From an uncultured Gammaproteobacteria bacterium (GTDB lineage Bacteria; Patescibacteriota; Microgenomatia; UBA1406; HO2-37-13b): a stretch of 51,446 nucleotides of DNA. The stretch lies in NCBI GenBank assembly GCA_964477065.1, contig CAYZCU010000001.1, forward strand, positions 26,042-77,487. Reading direction: 5' to 3'. Both the position numbers and the translations under genes were made by a program. Shown here one piece after another: positions 1 through 33,527 of this stretch; position 1 is the first letter of the stretch; every line of letters begins with the position of its first letter. The notes under the pieces were generated by a model. It saw only the letters and a list, made by a program, of their open reading frames with translations, was not told where the DNA came from and searched no databases.

Positions 1-143
1 CGAAAACCAAGAGGTAAAAAATAGTATCTCCCTGCACTTGATTCTCTAATAAATCCTCCTCGATATAATAGACGGTAAGAATCATTACTCGCTTCTGCTG
101 TTGCTGTCTTTTCTGTCTTTGGAAACATCTGTGAATATTTCAT
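1..143 (-). CDS. proS: prolyl-tRNA synthetase, N-terminal fragment (gene runs off the window start)
   Basis: Absent from the ORF track because it is too short. The minus-strand ATG at 143..141 gives MKYSQMFPKTEKTATAEASNDSYRLLYRGGFIRESSAGRYYFLPLGFR. This matches the conserved bacterial ProRS N-terminus (..SHQLLLRAGFIRQ.aSG.Y..LPLG.R). A T-box leader lies directly upstream. Confidence 0.8.
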   Translation of the reverse strand, partial: MKYSQMFPKTEKTATAEASNDSYRLLYRGGFIRESSAGRYYFLPLGF

Positions 144-188
144 ATTGTTTTCATAAATTGTAATTACTTTATGGCCCTTCTCGCCAAT

Positions 189-240
189 AAAAAAGCCTCG
201 CCATCACACACCAACATTGGTTGATATGCAAGGACGAGGC
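189..240 (-). terminator. intrinsic terminator of the T-box expression platform
   Basis: GCCUCG (240..235) and CGAGGC (200..195) close a long imperfect hairpin rich in GU pairs, followed by U6 (194..189). The 5' arm shares CCUCG with the antiterminator 3' strand. Confidence 0.65.
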
Positions 241-430
241 ATCTCGTGTTACCACCTTGTTTTATCCAGTTGTTGCCAACTGAACCTTTGTAACCGACTC
301 ATTCCTCTTGGGCGACATCGGCATTTCTATGTGTCTTAATCACAGTTGAACTTCTGTGGAAAGTTAGTGGCCTTCAGTTATCGGACCATGTCCTTTCTCG
401 CTCAAAGGCAGGAAACCTTTTCATCGCGAA
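189..430 (-). promoter_or_regulatory. T-box riboswitch leader (proline specifier) controlling proS
   Basis: Read on the minus strand. K-turn hairpin CGC-GAUGA-AAAGG[UUUCCUG]CCUUU-GA-GCG (428..399); its 7-nt loop carries the Pro codon CCU (412..410) followed by a purine. F-box-like CGGUUA (296..291). Stem III CAGUUG-GCAA-CAACUG (282..267). T-box motif AAGGUGGUAACACGAG (258..243). Antiterminator ACGAG/CUCGU competes with the terminator. The proS ATG lies 45 nt after the U-tract. Confidence 0.7.
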
Positions 431-450
431 TTAAAATAATATCTATGAAT

Positions 451-459
451 AGTATAGCA
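451..459 (-). promoter_or_regulatory. extended -10 promoter (TGcTATACT) for the T-box/proS transcript
   Basis: Reverse complement of 451..459 is TGCTATACT, about 20 nt upstream of the GCGAUGA start of the leader. It has the same extended -10 shape as other promoters in the window. Confidence 0.5.
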
Positions 460-597
460 CATTGAATACCTTGTGATGGGGTGATGTTCTCACTATCTTT
501 CTCAAGTTCAACTCTGTGACATTACGATCATCGATCTCTGATTTTCGATCATGTACATGAGCTCATAATAGCAAATAGCGGTTCAAGATACCCTCCA

Positions 598-606
598 TGA
601 TATAAT
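598..606 (+). promoter_or_regulatory. extended -10 promoter TGaTATAAT
   Basis: TGATATAAT lies 33 nt upstream of the ATG at 640. Confidence 0.4.
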
Positions 607-639
607 AGCAATTGTTGTTACATTAAATTTTTACTACTG

Positions 640-921
640 ATGACTATTGAGAGAGGCGAAAATACCAGGTGGCGTACATTTGAGGTCGGACAGAATGTAA
701 GTATCGGTGTGCATTATTTTCGCCAAGGGCGCGAAATCTTAACCACGCTCTGTGCTGCTACTGCTGGCAACCCAACTAATTCTGGCATCGTTATAAGTGC
801 GATCCGTGGAGGATGCCCAGTAGGAAATGGTATTGCGGAAGTGCAATGTCAGACATGTGACTATCGTGAACATCTAATTTCGCAGAGAAATGGCACCGTA
901 AGGCATGTCTCCTATAGCTGA
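640..921 (+). CDS. hypothetical small protein (93 aa, 4 Cys including CQTC)
   Basis: Only long ORF in this interval. It has a promoter-like box upstream and no family I recognise. Confidence 0.4.
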   Translation: MTIERGENTRWRTFEVGQNVSIGVHYFRQGREILTTLCAATAGNPTNSGIVISAIRGGCPVGNGIAEVQCQTCDYREHLISQRNGTVRHVSYS

Positions 922-982
922 TAGTGTCTGTGGTTTTCAATACCTGAAATTCTTTTTGAGATCAAATGCTGAGCGTGTCGGA

Positions 983-1444
983 CTAGACTCTATGCGTCCC
1001 TACAACTTGCTCTTCTATTTGCAACAAATGTTCTCCTTGATTATGCTCGATTGATGCTTCAAGAAATCTTTTTGGAGTGAATTTAGGATGTGGGCCTGCT
1101 TGTTTATGCCATTCACTCTCTGGCAATTGTTCATATACCTGTATTATCTTATTCCCAGATGCAATAAGCTCACTGTATACTGTTTCCCAGTTTTTAAGTT
1201 TGCTCGATTGAACACTTTGGGCATTGAACCTGTCAACATCATTAACCCACCTAGGAGAAGTTCCCTGTAACAGGCTAGCAACCTGATGTAATGACTGCCT
1301 CTCCCATCCAGTCAAATGTGCCAACATATCTTTGAGACTCCACTCTCCGAACAAAACAATTTCTCGTTTCTCCTTCGGAAATGCATCAACCATTGCCTCG
1401 AATTGCGTTCGTGCCTCTTTGTATTTTTGAATAAGTGTTTTCAT
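983..1444 (-). CDS. ClbS/DfsB (DUF1706)-like or DinB-like four-helix-bundle protein
   Basis: MKTLIQKYKEARTQFEAMV...WSLKDMLAHLTGWERQSL resembles the ClbS/DfsB pattern. Start reset to the ATG at 1444 because the tracked 5' extension (to 1531) runs through a tRNA gene. Confidence 0.55.
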   Translation of the reverse strand: MKTLIQKYKEARTQFEAMVDAFPKEKREIVLFGEWSLKDMLAHLTGWERQSLHQVASLLQGTSPRWVNDVDRFNAQSVQSSKLKNWETVYSELIASGNKIIQVYEQLPESEWHKQAGPHPKFTPKRFLEASIEHNQGEHLLQIEEQVVGTHRV

Positions 1445-1447
1445 CTG

Positions 1448-1518
1448 CTGCCCAGCAGGGATTTGAACCCCAATTACTTCGTTCAGAGCGAAGCGTCCTA
1501 CCATTAGACGACCGGGCA
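1448..1518 (-). tRNA. tRNA-Gln (anticodon CUG)
   Basis: Minus strand: TGCCCGG TC GTCT AATGGTA GGAC G CTTCG CTCTGAA CGAAG TAAT TGGGG TTCAAAT CCCTG CTGGGCA G. This folds as a 71-nt cloverleaf with U1:A72, G73, U33 and a TTCAAAT T-loop. CCA is not encoded. Confidence 0.85.
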
Positions 1519-1554
1519 TGTCCGTCCACAAACTTTCGAAGTGATCGTGGCATT

Positions 1555-1563
1555 ATTGTACCA
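1555..1563 (-). promoter_or_regulatory. candidate extended -10 (TGgTACAAT) upstream of tRNA-Gln(CUG)
   Basis: Reverse complement is TGGTACAAT, located between the XRE stop (1574) and the tRNA 5' end (1518). Confidence 0.3.
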
Positions 1564-1573
1564 CCGTAATGCG

Positions 1574-1888
1574 CTATTTGCCAGATGTGGCAGTTGGGAT
1601 AAAGGAAATATGCAACGTGCAATCCAGTGCCTGGGCAATGCGCTTCATCAATCGAAAAGATGGATTTGCCGTCATGGATTCGATAGATGATATACGCGCT
1701 TGGGATGTTTTGACACGTGACGCAAGCTCCTGCTGAGTCTCTTTGCGAGCAAGACGCTTTTCAATCAGTGCAGATGCGAGAATAAACTCAGGTCGCGCCT
1801 CTTCCCATGCTTGCACAAATTTGGGATTTTTGAGTAGTTCACTCAAGTGATCTTGATAGTCGATAGTGTGGGACTTTACCTTTTTCAT
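1574..1888 (-). CDS. XRE-family helix-turn-helix transcriptional regulator
   Basis: ETQQELASRVKTSQARISSIESMTANPSFRLMKRIAQAL is a typical Cro/C1 HTH. Start placed at MKKVKS (1888); the tracked extension is an AT-rich run. Confidence 0.7.
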   Translation of the reverse strand: MKKVKSHTIDYQDHLSELLKNPKFVQAWEEARPEFILASALIEKRLARKETQQELASRVKTSQARISSIESMTANPSFRLMKRIAQALDCTLHISFIPTATSGK

Positions 1889-1894
1889 ATTTAA

Positions 1895-1918
1895 ATATAT
1901 ATCATATATGATATATAT
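1895..1918. promoter_or_regulatory. perfect 24-nt AT-rich palindrome; candidate operator overlapping the XRE promoter
   Basis: ATATATATCATATATGATATATAT is its own reverse complement and begins 7 nt upstream of the XRE ATG. Confidence 0.45.
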
Positions 1919-1940
1919 AGTCAACTGCCTATAGCACTAT

Positions 1941-2585
1941 CTACCGCCTGTGCTGACCTGGAGAGAGAAAGAGCTCGCACTCATCACCGACACATTCTTC
2001 AGGAGAAAGGCTCTGGTAGCGCTGATACATGCTTTCAAATTGCTCAAGATAATGAAGCACTTCGCGTGGGGTTGTAGCATAGCGAAACACTTTGTATTCT
2101 TCCTCACGGACGCGCATGTTTTTCCAAAAGGCATCGAGTATGCTTCGCCAAAATGGACCATACAAAATAAATGGCTTGTGCCTATCAAAGTACAAACGTG
2201 AAAGTGCCCATGCCATACCAAACTCAGAGATCGTCCCCGTTCCTCCATTAAAAAGCACATACGCATCCCCTTCCTCTAAAAGCCGTCTTGTCCTTTCGAC
2301 ATAATTAGATTCCTCAGTCGCTTTATCCACGAGGCGAATGTTTTCATCCATTTTCCCTTCAAAATGATTCACATGTTTTGGAGAAAAGTACACCGCCTCA
2401 ACACGGCCTCCTCCAGCTTTTGCCCCTTTTGAGCCAGCATACATCACCCCCGGACCACCACCATTGATCTGTGTATATCCATGCTCTGCCAGGAGTTTGG
2501 CAGTATCAAAGGCACTGACAAATTCCTCATCTTTTTCGTGAGATTGAGAATAGCCGAAGAACGTAACTGTATTGATAAGTTTCAT
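1941..2585 (-). CDS. LOG-family protein (TIGR00730-like nucleotide phosphoribohydrolase)
   Basis: Motifs NGGGPGVM and NGGTGTISE (PGGxGTxxE-like). An alternative GTG start at 2594 abuts the GH57 stop. Confidence 0.75.
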   Translation of the reverse strand: MKLINTVTFFGYSQSHEKDEEFVSAFDTAKLLAEHGYTQINGGGPGVMYAGSKGAKAGGGRVEAVYFSPKHVNHFEGKMDENIRLVDKATEESNYVERTRRLLEEGDAYVLFNGGTGTISEFGMAWALSRLYFDRHKPFILYGPFWRSILDAFWKNMRVREEEYKVFRYATTPREVLHYLEQFESMYQRYQSLSPEECVGDECELFLSPGQHRR

Positions 2586-2594
2586 AGCAATCAC

Positions 2595-3854
2595 TTACTT
2601 TACAGGTTTTTGACGCTTCTTTCCAGTCGAAGTTCGTGACTGTTTCACAGGTGATTCAAGCCGATCTAATCGAATTTCGATATCTTTCAGAGCATTCATA
2701 TAGGCTATGCATGCGTCATAGGGTGATTCATATGGGTTGAAATAGGCATGCACATCACCATCTGAAAACCACTTGGTACACATATAGTAAAAATGATCGG
2801 ATGTCAGCATATGTTGCCAGTCACTGAGAATCGTAGGATCGGTAGCCATTGACGCATAGACGCGCGGGCGCAATGCATAGACCTGCTCGATAGCATCTCG
2901 TTGCATTTTATTTCCGACCCATGCTGACAAATCTCGATCTGTATCTGCCCAGGTCAAGATATTGGGGACATCGATATAGCCAACAGATGGATATGTTTTA
3001 ATAACTTCTGTGGGCATCATGAAATTATTTTTGGGATTTTTCAGAAGTGCTTTGGGCAATGCAGATAAGAAATCAAATATACCTGTTTCTTCCCACTGAT
3101 GTTCCCCAAATGTTTCATAGTCCATAAAGAGGTTCACCGTTTGAGCATCATCTTCGATCGCGTTGATCCATGCTACAAATTTATCCACCGTCAACGGCCA
3201 TTCTGGCCATGATCGCTCTGAAAATCGAAAAGCAATATCATCTGAAAGGGTGTAATTTTTGAGGAGAACTTTAACATGCTCTGTATCAACGGGTTGGTAC
3301 ACATAGTTTGGACTGCGCCACTGTAAAATTGGATCCCACCCTTCAGCGACAAGGCCTGCATAGCCTGCCTCATCGGCCCATTTTGCAAGATCATTGTTGT
3401 ATGCCAATTCTGTATTTGAAAAAACACGCGGTGTGACGCCAAACAAGTCATGTATCCGCGTGCGATGTTGCTCGACTTGGCTTTCAAATTCATCACGATT
3501 ATAAAAAAAAGAGAGTGAATGATGATACGTCTCTCCTAAAATTTCCGCCTTCCCCGTTGCCACAATTTCTTTAAATTGTGTGATGACTGATGGATCGATT
3601 TCTTCAAGTTGATCAAGCAGGACACCCGTGAGAGACAAACTTACTTTAAATCCGGGAACGTCCTTGAGCAATTTCAGAAGTAATGCATTTGTTGGGATGT
3701 ATGATTTGTGGATGACTTTTTTGAGAATTTTTTTGTTATCAAGTCGCTCTTCATCTGTTTGGAAATAATCTGACGACGTACCAATATCAAAGACGCCAAA
3801 CCGTCGAATGCGACGGGGTTGATGCGCTTTGAGATAGAGACAAATGGTTGGCAT
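2595..3854 (-). CDS. glycoside hydrolase family 57 (alpha-amylase/branching-type)
   Basis: N-terminal ICLYLKAHQPRR (the HQP signature of GH57), ~420 aa, within a glycogen gene cluster. Confidence 0.7.
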   Translation of the reverse strand: MPTICLYLKAHQPRRIRRFGVFDIGTSSDYFQTDEERLDNKKILKKVIHKSYIPTNALLLKLLKDVPGFKVSLSLTGVLLDQLEEIDPSVITQFKEIVATGKAEILGETYHHSLSFFYNRDEFESQVEQHRTRIHDLFGVTPRVFSNTELAYNNDLAKWADEAGYAGLVAEGWDPILQWRSPNYVYQPVDTEHVKVLLKNYTLSDDIAFRFSERSWPEWPLTVDKFVAWINAIEDDAQTVNLFMDYETFGEHQWEETGIFDFLSALPKALLKNPKNNFMMPTEVIKTYPSVGYIDVPNILTWADTDRDLSAWVGNKMQRDAIEQVYALRPRVYASMATDPTILSDWQHMLTSDHFYYMCTKWFSDGDVHAYFNPYESPYDACIAYMNALKDIEIRLDRLESPVKQSRTSTGKKRQKPVK

Positions 3855-32636: not shown

Positions 32637-33527
32637 TCACTCCTGCATTATCAATTTCAACGTCGCGACATTTTGCATGGGCGTACCCGTACTTCGGAAG
32701 ACCGTATATGCTTTATCCGATACATCAATACTCCCCTCAATGACATCTTTCAAATAGTGAACATTTTCTTTTTTTAAGATACCTTTTTCATGAGCAGCTT
32801 TCAAATCACTGACAAAATTGATTGAGTCCTCCCAGTCAGTAATAATATGCCCTGTATCAGTATTAAGCACATCATTTTCAAGCTCTCCATGATCTGAGGT
32901 TGTTCTGTAAGATGTGATAATTGCACCTTTTTTTATCTTTGGAATATCGTCTGCAGTGATGATTGGATGATTCGTACTTGTATGCATTATGATGACATCA
33001 TAGAGTGAGATATCAGGGGTTTTGACATAGACCGCATTGACGCCACATTCTGATGCAAATTGAATAAATGGATCTACATTTCCCGATGCATTAACAATAT
33101 CAACTGTCTCAAGATCAGGAAAAATTTCTTTGAGATACCGCAATGAACAGCGTGATATTTTGCCAGTCCCATAGATAATGATTCGCTTCTCTCGTAAGCT
33201 CTTAACGCCCAGTATCTGAAGGAGCAATGCATCCATGACTCCCGTGCGCTTATCTGCATATTCAGTAAAATCTATGTTGAGTTCAACTTTCCCATCACAA
33301 AAAACAAGTGCTTGTTGTGGTGCTTTTTTCGAAATGGGATCGTATGGACTAGCTGTATGATAGATGCGCGGAGGATTTTCGCCACGTGGCTCAAAGATAA
33401 AATAGTTGAAATAATCACCAAGAAACGTATCCTTCAAAAAGAATTCAGGCACATATTTGTGCATTGCATATGCATCCTGATGAATGAAAACATCTTTGAT
33501 ACTGTCGATCAATTTTTGTGCCTGCAT
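32637..33527 (-). CDS. ornithine cyclodeaminase/mu-crystallin-family-like NAD(P) Rossmann protein
   Basis: IIIYGTGKISRCSLRYLKEIFPDLETVDIVN (GxGxxx Rossmann at mid-protein, as in the OCD family), about 300 aa. Assignment is tentative. Confidence 0.4.
   Translation of the reverse strand: MQAQKLIDSIKDVFIHQDAYAMHKYVPEFFLKDTFLGDYFNYFIFEPRGENPPRIYHTASPYDPISKKAPQQALVFCDGKVELNIDFTEYADKRTGVMDALLLQILGVKSLREKRIIIYGTGKISRCSLRYLKEIFPDLETVDIVNASGNVDPFIQFASECGVNAVYVKTPDISLYDVIIMHTSTNHPIITADDIPKIKKGAIITSYRTTSDHGELENDVLNTDTGHIITDWEDSINFVSDLKAAHEKGILKKENVHYLKDVIEGSIDVSDKAYTVFRSTGTPMQNVATLKLIMQE

Follow-up and report, generated by a model that had tools for sequence, protein, structure and literature searches.

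The leader of the proS gene described here raises the question of whether a T-box can control transcription when the distal part of Stem I, with its platform for the tRNA elbow, is missing. Transcriptional T-boxes are held to need an elbow-docking platform for fast tRNA capture (PMC7583486), and field reviews ascribe the short Stem I forms to slow, reversible translational switches. The short-Stem-I T-boxes described in PMC7583486 and PMC11297988 are those of ileS in Actinobacteria (Mycobacterium and Nocardia; Sherwood, Grundy and Henkin, 2015), and in TBDB the short-form model was restricted to Actinobacteria and to those class I hits in which Stem I is truncated. The DNA analyzed, called the window throughout, is a stretch of 51,446 nt from assembly GCA_964477065.1 (contig CAYZCU010000001.1, positions 26,042 to 77,487, forward strand). 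The source genome (G000; 855 kb, ~90% complete) belongs to an ultra-small CPR bacterium and is placed by GTDB in the lineage Bacteria; Patescibacteriota; Microgenomatia; UBA1406; HO2-37-13b.

A complete leader was located at window positions 189–459 on the minus strand, upstream of an open reading frame starting at 143 (Table 1). Comparison of window positions 1–3000 with all Rfam families returned a single T-box match, at 227–433 (−), in which RF00230 was aligned over model positions 1–219, that is, over the whole model, with 38.7 bits and an E value of 2.2e-6 for this 3-kb search. Genome-wide, the E value was 1.5e-7, and this was the sole T-box match in the 855-kb genome. A preliminary description of the locus, made from the sequence alone, had predicted a T-box covariance match on the minus strand upstream of proS; the match was obtained, though its score does not reach the curated RF00230 cut-off of 93 bits. 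This shortfall is due to the deletion of distal Stem I, as 7 nt (UUUCCUG) stand in for 76 distal Stem I model positions in the Rfam alignment. In addition, the leader was more stable than 200 shuffled sequences (folding energy, z = −4.1), and the K-turn, Stem II, Stem IIA and Stem III were recovered by free-energy folding. The ordered T-box hallmarks listed in the preliminary description were each found at the place given for them. Sequence analysis thus confirmed the leader before proS as a genuine T-box switch, and by every tested feature other than the Rfam cut-off and distal Stem I it classifies as a T-box.

Table 1. Features of the proS leader and the proS 5′ end, in window coordinates.
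Feature	Position	Strand	Basis
Putative extended −10 promoter box, TGCTATACT	451–459	−	Read from sequence; promoter function inferred
Ultrashort Stem I: K-turn, 5-bp helix AAAGG/CCUUU, 7-nt apical loop	400–427	−	Rfam alignment, MFE fold, covariation
Specifier CCU (proline codon, 410–412) plus purine G409, directly 5′ of the closing strand	409–412	−	Conservation, tRNA-Pro genes
Stem II: base helix GAAAG/CUUUC, internal loop GACA/CUAA at the usual S-turn site, distal hairpin	359–397	−	Rfam alignment, MFE fold
Stem IIA hairpin, CACAG-AAGUUCAA-CUGUG	341–358	−	Rfam alignment
Lineage-specific insert: helix GCCGAU/GUCGGU around a weak hairpin, then UACAAAG	286–322	−	MFE fold
Stem III: 9 bp, GNRA loop GCAA	264–285	−	MFE fold, covariation
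Antiterminator: A1 CAAGG/CCUUG, 7-nt bulge UGGUAAC, A2 ACGAG/CUCGU	229–259	−	Rfam alignment, folding
Intrinsic terminator: GCCUCGUC/GGCGAGGC plus 12-bp inner helix (46-nt hairpin, 195–240), U6 at 189–194	189–240	−	Hairpin energy, platform MFE
proS 5′ end: 47 codons, ATG at 141–143	3–143	−	ORF list, Pfam, NCBIfam

Related leaders were collected for comparison. With RF00230, 24 of 61 close relatives had matches below its cut-off, as did 50 of 151 genomes from a sample of the phylum; in this sample, no more than 5 matches were above the cut-off. A BLAST search with the leader within the family went no further than G006 and, for the T-box core, G015, since DNA identity was too low. Eight leaders were aligned using MAFFT (alignment A1) and a covariance model was built from them; the A1 structure was 88.5% paired vs. 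31–44% in slid controls. This model matched 45 of 151 genomes of the order, and the 34 best matches (alignment A2) were 91.9% paired vs. 32–47% in slid controls, a figure from an alignment fitted to the model, which favors the model structure. To judge from these matches, the short-arm design is the usual T-box form in the order and is common across the phylum. In G006, from another genus of the family, the orthologous proS leader has retained the promoter, UUUCCUG, Stem II, Stem IIA, the bulge and the terminator, with compensatory changes in its helices relative to the leader studied here.

At the upstream end, G006 carries TGTTATACT at the position equivalent to the promoter box, and transcription of the proS leader would start at about 443–446, roughly 15 nt upstream of Stem I. 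A strict −35/−10 promoter scan and a simple terminator scan of window positions 1–700 returned nothing. The promoter was missed because it has no −35 box and the terminator because its stem has a mismatch; the promoter and terminator calls therefore rest on folding energies and conservation. With about 25 nt between the promoter and Stem I downstream of it, there is no space for a longer Stem I. A 93-aa open reading frame at 640–921 (+), Cys-rich near its C terminus and with no Pfam match, is divergent from the T-box promoter.

Stem I itself is formed by the strands GCG-AUGA-AAAGG / CCUUU-GA-GC, and its K-turn, GC-GAU-GA / GA-GC, a motif read from the sequence alone, aligns to the GA motif of RF00230. 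The hairpin thus has the GA/K-turn and the 7-nt loop with a proline codon and a following purine that had been proposed, with UUUCCUG at 409–415. Both sides had changed in four of the five Stem I pairs among the 8 sequences and in all five among the 34 sequences, where Stem I was 93% paired. No specifier internal loop, AG bulge or distal loop (elbow platform) was present in the proS leader, in agreement with the apparently ultrashort Stem I of the preliminary description.

The specifier was evaluated using the related leaders. Both of its C's are invariant in A1, and the other proS leaders contain the loops UUCCCAG (G047), AUCCCA (G088), CUCCCA (G050), UUCCCG (L213) and UUUCCCG (L108, a metagenome leader whose ProRS is 69% identical). 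CCN plus a purine stood immediately before the 3′ strand in all 24 hairpin-loop leaders ahead of proS, proB-like kinase, ornithine aminotransferase (OAT) or ornithine cyclodeaminase (OCD) genes. None of six leaders without a recognized proline gene had CCN in the loop, where CGCA, AGAUACC and others were found, and an aspS leader of the same design has the specifier GAC-A. Together with UGGU in 30 of the 34 related leaders, these counts bear out conservation of the CCN loop and the UGGN bulge among proline leaders.

The loop UUUCCUG also holds UUU and UUC (Phe), UCC (Ser) and CUG (Leu), so that a T-box of other specificity has to be weighed. The bulge UGGU alone does not exclude it, as the tRNA-Phe and tRNA-Leu of the genome have A73; the tRNA-Ser, however, has G73. 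On the discriminator base, then, UCC can be excluded as the codon, and it falls to conservation to exclude UUC and CUG. Across the relatives, CC alone is invariant, and the loops AUCCCA, CUCCCA and UCCCCCG contain neither UUC nor CUG. Moreover, the codon and purine always directly precede the 3′ strand, as GAC-A does before aspS, and the gene controlled here is proS. A specificity other than proline is thus extremely unlikely.

Short-Stem-I leaders with other loops were also seen. In L008, L010, L016 and L290 the loop is the 4-nt CGCA (perhaps Arg CGC plus A); the gene that follows encodes a CsaA-type tRNA-binding protein in L016, a protein of 190 aa in L010 and one of 273 aa in L008. In L002, L003 and L005, loops of the type A(G/A)AUACC lie ahead of an aminotransferase gene and unknown genes.

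Downstream of Stem I, the layout of Stem II is alike in G006, with the internal loop GAUA/GUAA. The internal loop GACA/CUAA of the proS leader deviates from the S-turn consensus GAA/AGUA, so a true S-turn is uncertain. In the Stem IIA hairpin, the loop bases UUC (348–350) can pair with GAA (325–327) to form a 3-bp IIB pseudoknot. The corresponding IIA/B pairing is CUC/GAG in G006 and G088 and CUUAA/UUAAG in G209, and the pseudoknot was 77% paired vs. 17–46% in slid controls, with two pairs changed on both sides in this small sample; the comparative support for it is modest. Stem III with its GNRA loop was found as previously described, with covariation in eight of nine pairs (8 sequences) and in all nine, 94.6% paired (34 sequences).

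Between the pseudoknot and Stem III lies an insert containing the motif GGUUACAAAG. The related motif GAUGUC...GAGUYGGUUACAAAG was found in G047, G049, G051 and G209, the insert being common to G000 and genus g20 of another family, and its helix shows a compensatory change among the relatives (CCGAU/GUCGG to CCAAU/GUUGG). Of the insert, only a plain hairpin is left in G006, and L108, like many other Pro leaders, lacks it altogether; therefore, it is dispensable. The preliminary description had pointed to an F-box-like CGGUUA. This hexamer is present at 291–296 but lies within the clade-specific insert and is not the F-box, which the Rfam alignment and pseudoknot covariation place at 341–358. 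As a candidate for the true F-box/Stem IIA, CGGUUA was rejected on two counts: g20 leaders carry the motif and, apart from it, a Stem IIA (ACGG...CCGU), and covariation links the pseudoknot to the 341–358 hairpin.

By analogy with known T-boxes, a terminator-type T-box without a platform may work poorly or need help. The elbow contact could then have been relocated, with the insert at 286–322, or a trans-acting CsaA-type tRNA-binding protein, replacing the Stem I platform. Conservation of the insert motif with compensatory change in G000 and genus g20 would fit such a role, as would a stand-alone tRNA_bind (CsaA-like) gene at G000:C5:17828-18109 and the CsaA-type gene behind a T-box in the relative L016. 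However, the reduction of the insert in G006 and its absence from L108 and many Pro leaders speak against it, and the CsaA-like gene is unlinked to the T-box here. We consider such a relocation improbable.

The 3′ part of the leader contains the competing structures of the expression platform. The T-box sequence AAGGUGGUAACACG (245–258, −) agrees with the consensus AGGGUGGNACCGCG at 11 of 14 positions, and UGGU is found at 251–254 (−) within AAGGUGGUAACACGAG, the bulge reading UGGUAAC rather than the consensus UGGNACC. Across the relatives in the 8- and 34-sequence alignments, helix A1 was 100% paired and helix A2 94–95%. The terminator belongs to the MFE structure of the expression platform, and its 5′ arm (233–240) overlaps the 3′ strands of the antiterminator (229–238), positions 229–240 being shared; the two structures are mutually exclusive, with one strand in common. 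Folding of the two alternatives, as had been suggested, gave −27.7 kcal/mol for the terminator hairpin and −9.4 kcal/mol for the antiterminator. T-boxes are usually balanced in this way, the antiterminator being too weak to prevail unless the tRNA assists it. The predicted terminator with a 5′ arm common to the antiterminator was thus recovered, and a run of at least five U's closes 32 of the 34 related leaders. Several T-box leaders of relatives (L002, L004, L005, L008, L016 and L110) have a GC-rich hairpin followed by U6–U8 between Stem IIA/B and the T-box bulge; this inner hairpin looks like a terminator upstream of the antiterminator.

The genome contains three tRNA-Pro genes (GGG, UGG and CGG), all with A73. 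U251 of UGGU complements A73 in all three, consistent with the earlier proposal that UGGU pairs with the ACCA end of an A73 tRNA, and proline anticodons are present. The bulge is UGGC rather than UGGU in L067 (the proS leader of G050), L278 and L292; this would imply a partner with G73, which is unexpected for tRNA-Pro.

A translational T-box, as in actinobacterial ileS, would sequester the ribosome-binding region in the 3′ hairpin. The decoding module is of a type hitherto tied to translational control (PMC7583486), and occlusion of the start is conceivable in the g20 relatives, where the start codon abuts the U-tract. However, the hairpin of the proS leader ends 45 nt upstream of the proS ATG. 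No Shine-Dalgarno-like sequence lies within it, the U6 behind it is characteristic of intrinsic terminators, and U-runs of at least five close nearly all of the related leaders counted above. Antitermination is therefore the best reading, in line with the terminator-type platform first proposed, and translational control at this gene is very unlikely. In genus g20 and metagenome relatives (L098, L099, L100, L101 and L108), the regulated start codon abuts the terminator U-tract (UUUUUUUAUG), and the hairpin of these leaders might also hinder translation initiation. Near the proS start of the window, no Shine-Dalgarno sequence was found, and the UGA of a mini-ORF within 140–162 (−), AUGAAAACAAUAUGA (MKTI-stop), shares bases with the proS AUG.

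Alternatively, the leader could be a decaying relic without a regulatory role, with a promoter downstream of the terminator and ahead of the ATG driving proS. A TACAAT hexamer is located in this interval, at 157–162 (−), and could allow T-box-independent expression of proS. The low Rfam score and the bulge and S-turn positions that are off consensus also fit a relic, as does the fact that the leader was not found in three same-genus genomes. These genomes, however, are 86–87% complete, and two of the three gave no ProRS match at the threshold used. Furthermore, all helices of the leader are intact and are kept in G006 via compensatory changes, and the specifier, UGGU and the terminator are conserved over about 28 proline-gene leaders. 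Decay is accordingly quite improbable, and a functional proline T-box is the preferred interpretation.

The identity of the controlled gene was established across an assembly gap. After codon 47, proS is broken by a scaffold gap of 10 N (G000:C1:26032-26041), which adjoins window position 1 on its left; past the gap the frame resumes at MVTPVLHPLG... and continues for 506 more codons, about 20–25 codons being missing from the assembly. The remaining 506 aa scored 445 bits against TIGR00409, proline--tRNA ligase (cut-off 306.7), and Pfam detected a class II core, a tRNA_edit (INS) domain and an anticodon-binding domain in the product, so that the downstream gene is proS, as had been assumed. 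The closest named ProRS relatives are from Levyibacteriota, Daviesbacteria, Microgenomates and 'Patescibacteria group' MAGs.

A second ProRS gene was found in the genome, outside the window (G000:C18:124-1362, +). It encodes a short ProRS of 412 aa without an editing domain (TIGR00409, 413 bits), and its ATG lies 6 nt after TGCTATAAT; this short ProRS looks leaderless and constitutive, and the one of G006 is alike in this. The only tRNA_edit domain detected in the genome is the one on the long, T-box-controlled ProRS. Within the family, most genomes yielded the short-type ProRS alone, and G005 and G016 have the long type alone, with no T-box core upstream. Both types occur in G000 and G006, and these two carry the T-box on the long proS. 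A link between possession of both ProRS types and a T-box on the long proS is therefore a lead and not a test, as it comes from two related genomes. When 600–1200 nt upstream were scanned for 58 long-type proS of the order and 160 metagenome and genome relatives, a T-box was directly upstream in only a few; several other long-type proS sit in T-box-led proline operons (ocd-proS, rocD-proS). In the ~90% complete genome, P5C reductase was not found, and an open reading frame of the ornithine cyclodeaminase/mu-crystallin family at window positions 32640–33272 (−) gave a partial profile match of 46 bits.

Given the motifs, alternative folds, tRNA complementarity, gene identity and conservation with covariation observed at this locus, the leader is very probably a proline-specific T-box that controls proS by tRNA-Pro-dependent transcription antitermination. 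What follows on tRNA binding, on termination and on the sense of the regulation is inferred. The leader would be transcribed from the extended −10 promoter, and the K-turn, the apical-loop codon, Stem II and the IIA/B pseudoknot would form a compact anticodon-binding module, as in the actinobacterial short-Stem-I ileS leaders, leaving the tRNA elbow without a distal Stem I platform. The likeliest partner would be tRNA-Pro(GGG), with a G-U wobble at the third position. If uncharged, its 3′ ACCA could pair with UGGU of the bulge and stabilize the weak antiterminator, so that RNA polymerase reads into proS. With the tRNA charged or absent, the stronger terminator and U6 would form and transcription would stop about 45 nt before the start codon.

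We tentatively raise a further possibility, that the T-box is a quality-control switch between the two ProRS, with the editing-competent enzyme induced when charging of tRNA-Pro falls. Normal growth would then rely on the leaderless, constitutive, editing-less ProRS. At low tRNA-Pro charging, mischarging with Ala or Cys would become relatively likelier, and the platform-less T-box would induce the editing ProRS. If this doubtful reading were true, co-transcriptional tRNA sensing would work without the Stem I elbow platform. The link to an editing-competent second ProRS suggests how a reduced genome might couple translation fidelity to amino-acid supply.

In the literature searched, nothing relevant was found on T-boxes of CPR/Patescibacteria or metagenomes, nor a description of a short decoding module joined to tRNA-Pro transcription antitermination. 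The papers searched describe the short specifier hairpin only for translation-controlling actinobacterial switches and not together with a terminator. A conserved and covarying family that joins a short decoding module to a classical terminator provides a direct test of the platform rule. With leaders of about 150–240 nt, these would be among the smallest natural transcriptional tRNA sensors available for structural and engineering work. To our knowledge, few regulatory mechanisms are known in Patescibacteria. Because most of the short leaders score below the Rfam cut-off, T-box regulation is probably under-annotated in this group.

Compared with the actinobacterial ileS T-boxes, the proS leader likewise has its specifier in the apical loop of a short Stem I and no elbow-docking platform. 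The K-turn, Stem II and the IIA/B pseudoknot are kept, with the S-turn uncertain here, as are Stem III and a UGGN bulge for the discriminator. The likeness to these ultrashort-Stem-I leaders noted in the preliminary description is thus apt for the decoding half (K-turn, apical specifier, Stem II and IIA/B pseudoknot). In contrast to the ileS leaders, the specifier is Pro (CCU) before proS rather than Ile before ileS, the host belongs to Patescibacteria and not Actinobacteria, and an additional lineage-specific insert precedes Stem III. Moreover, an intrinsic terminator with a U-tract takes the place of the Shine-Dalgarno sequestrator. The proS leader is not, on these features, a member of the translational ileS class.

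The proS leader also resembles the canonical transcriptional T-boxes (RF00230; B. subtilis tyrS and proBA/proI). In both, a terminator competes with an antiterminator, the UGGN of the T-box sequence fits the discriminator base of the tRNA, the specifier is a codon plus a purine, the K-turn, Stem II, Stem IIA/B and Stem III are present, and the gene under control encodes an aminoacyl-tRNA synthetase. Bacillus, too, has CCU as a proline specifier. Unlike the canonical form, the proS leader has lost distal Stem I wholly and carries its codon in the terminal loop, and it differs in its score (38.7 bits vs. the cut-off of 93) and in its bulge, UGGUAAC.

At the level of the gene pair, Firmicutes have T-box-controlled second synthetase genes, such as B. 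subtilis thrZ and tyrZ. As in those cases, there are two genes for one synthetase here and a T-box on one of them, an analogy that suggests that the T-box-controlled ProRS is an inducible back-up enzyme. Unlike in the thrZ/tyrZ cases, the two ProRS differ in their domains. What appears new is a T-box placed on the ProRS with the only editing domain detected in the genome, the second ProRS being leaderless.
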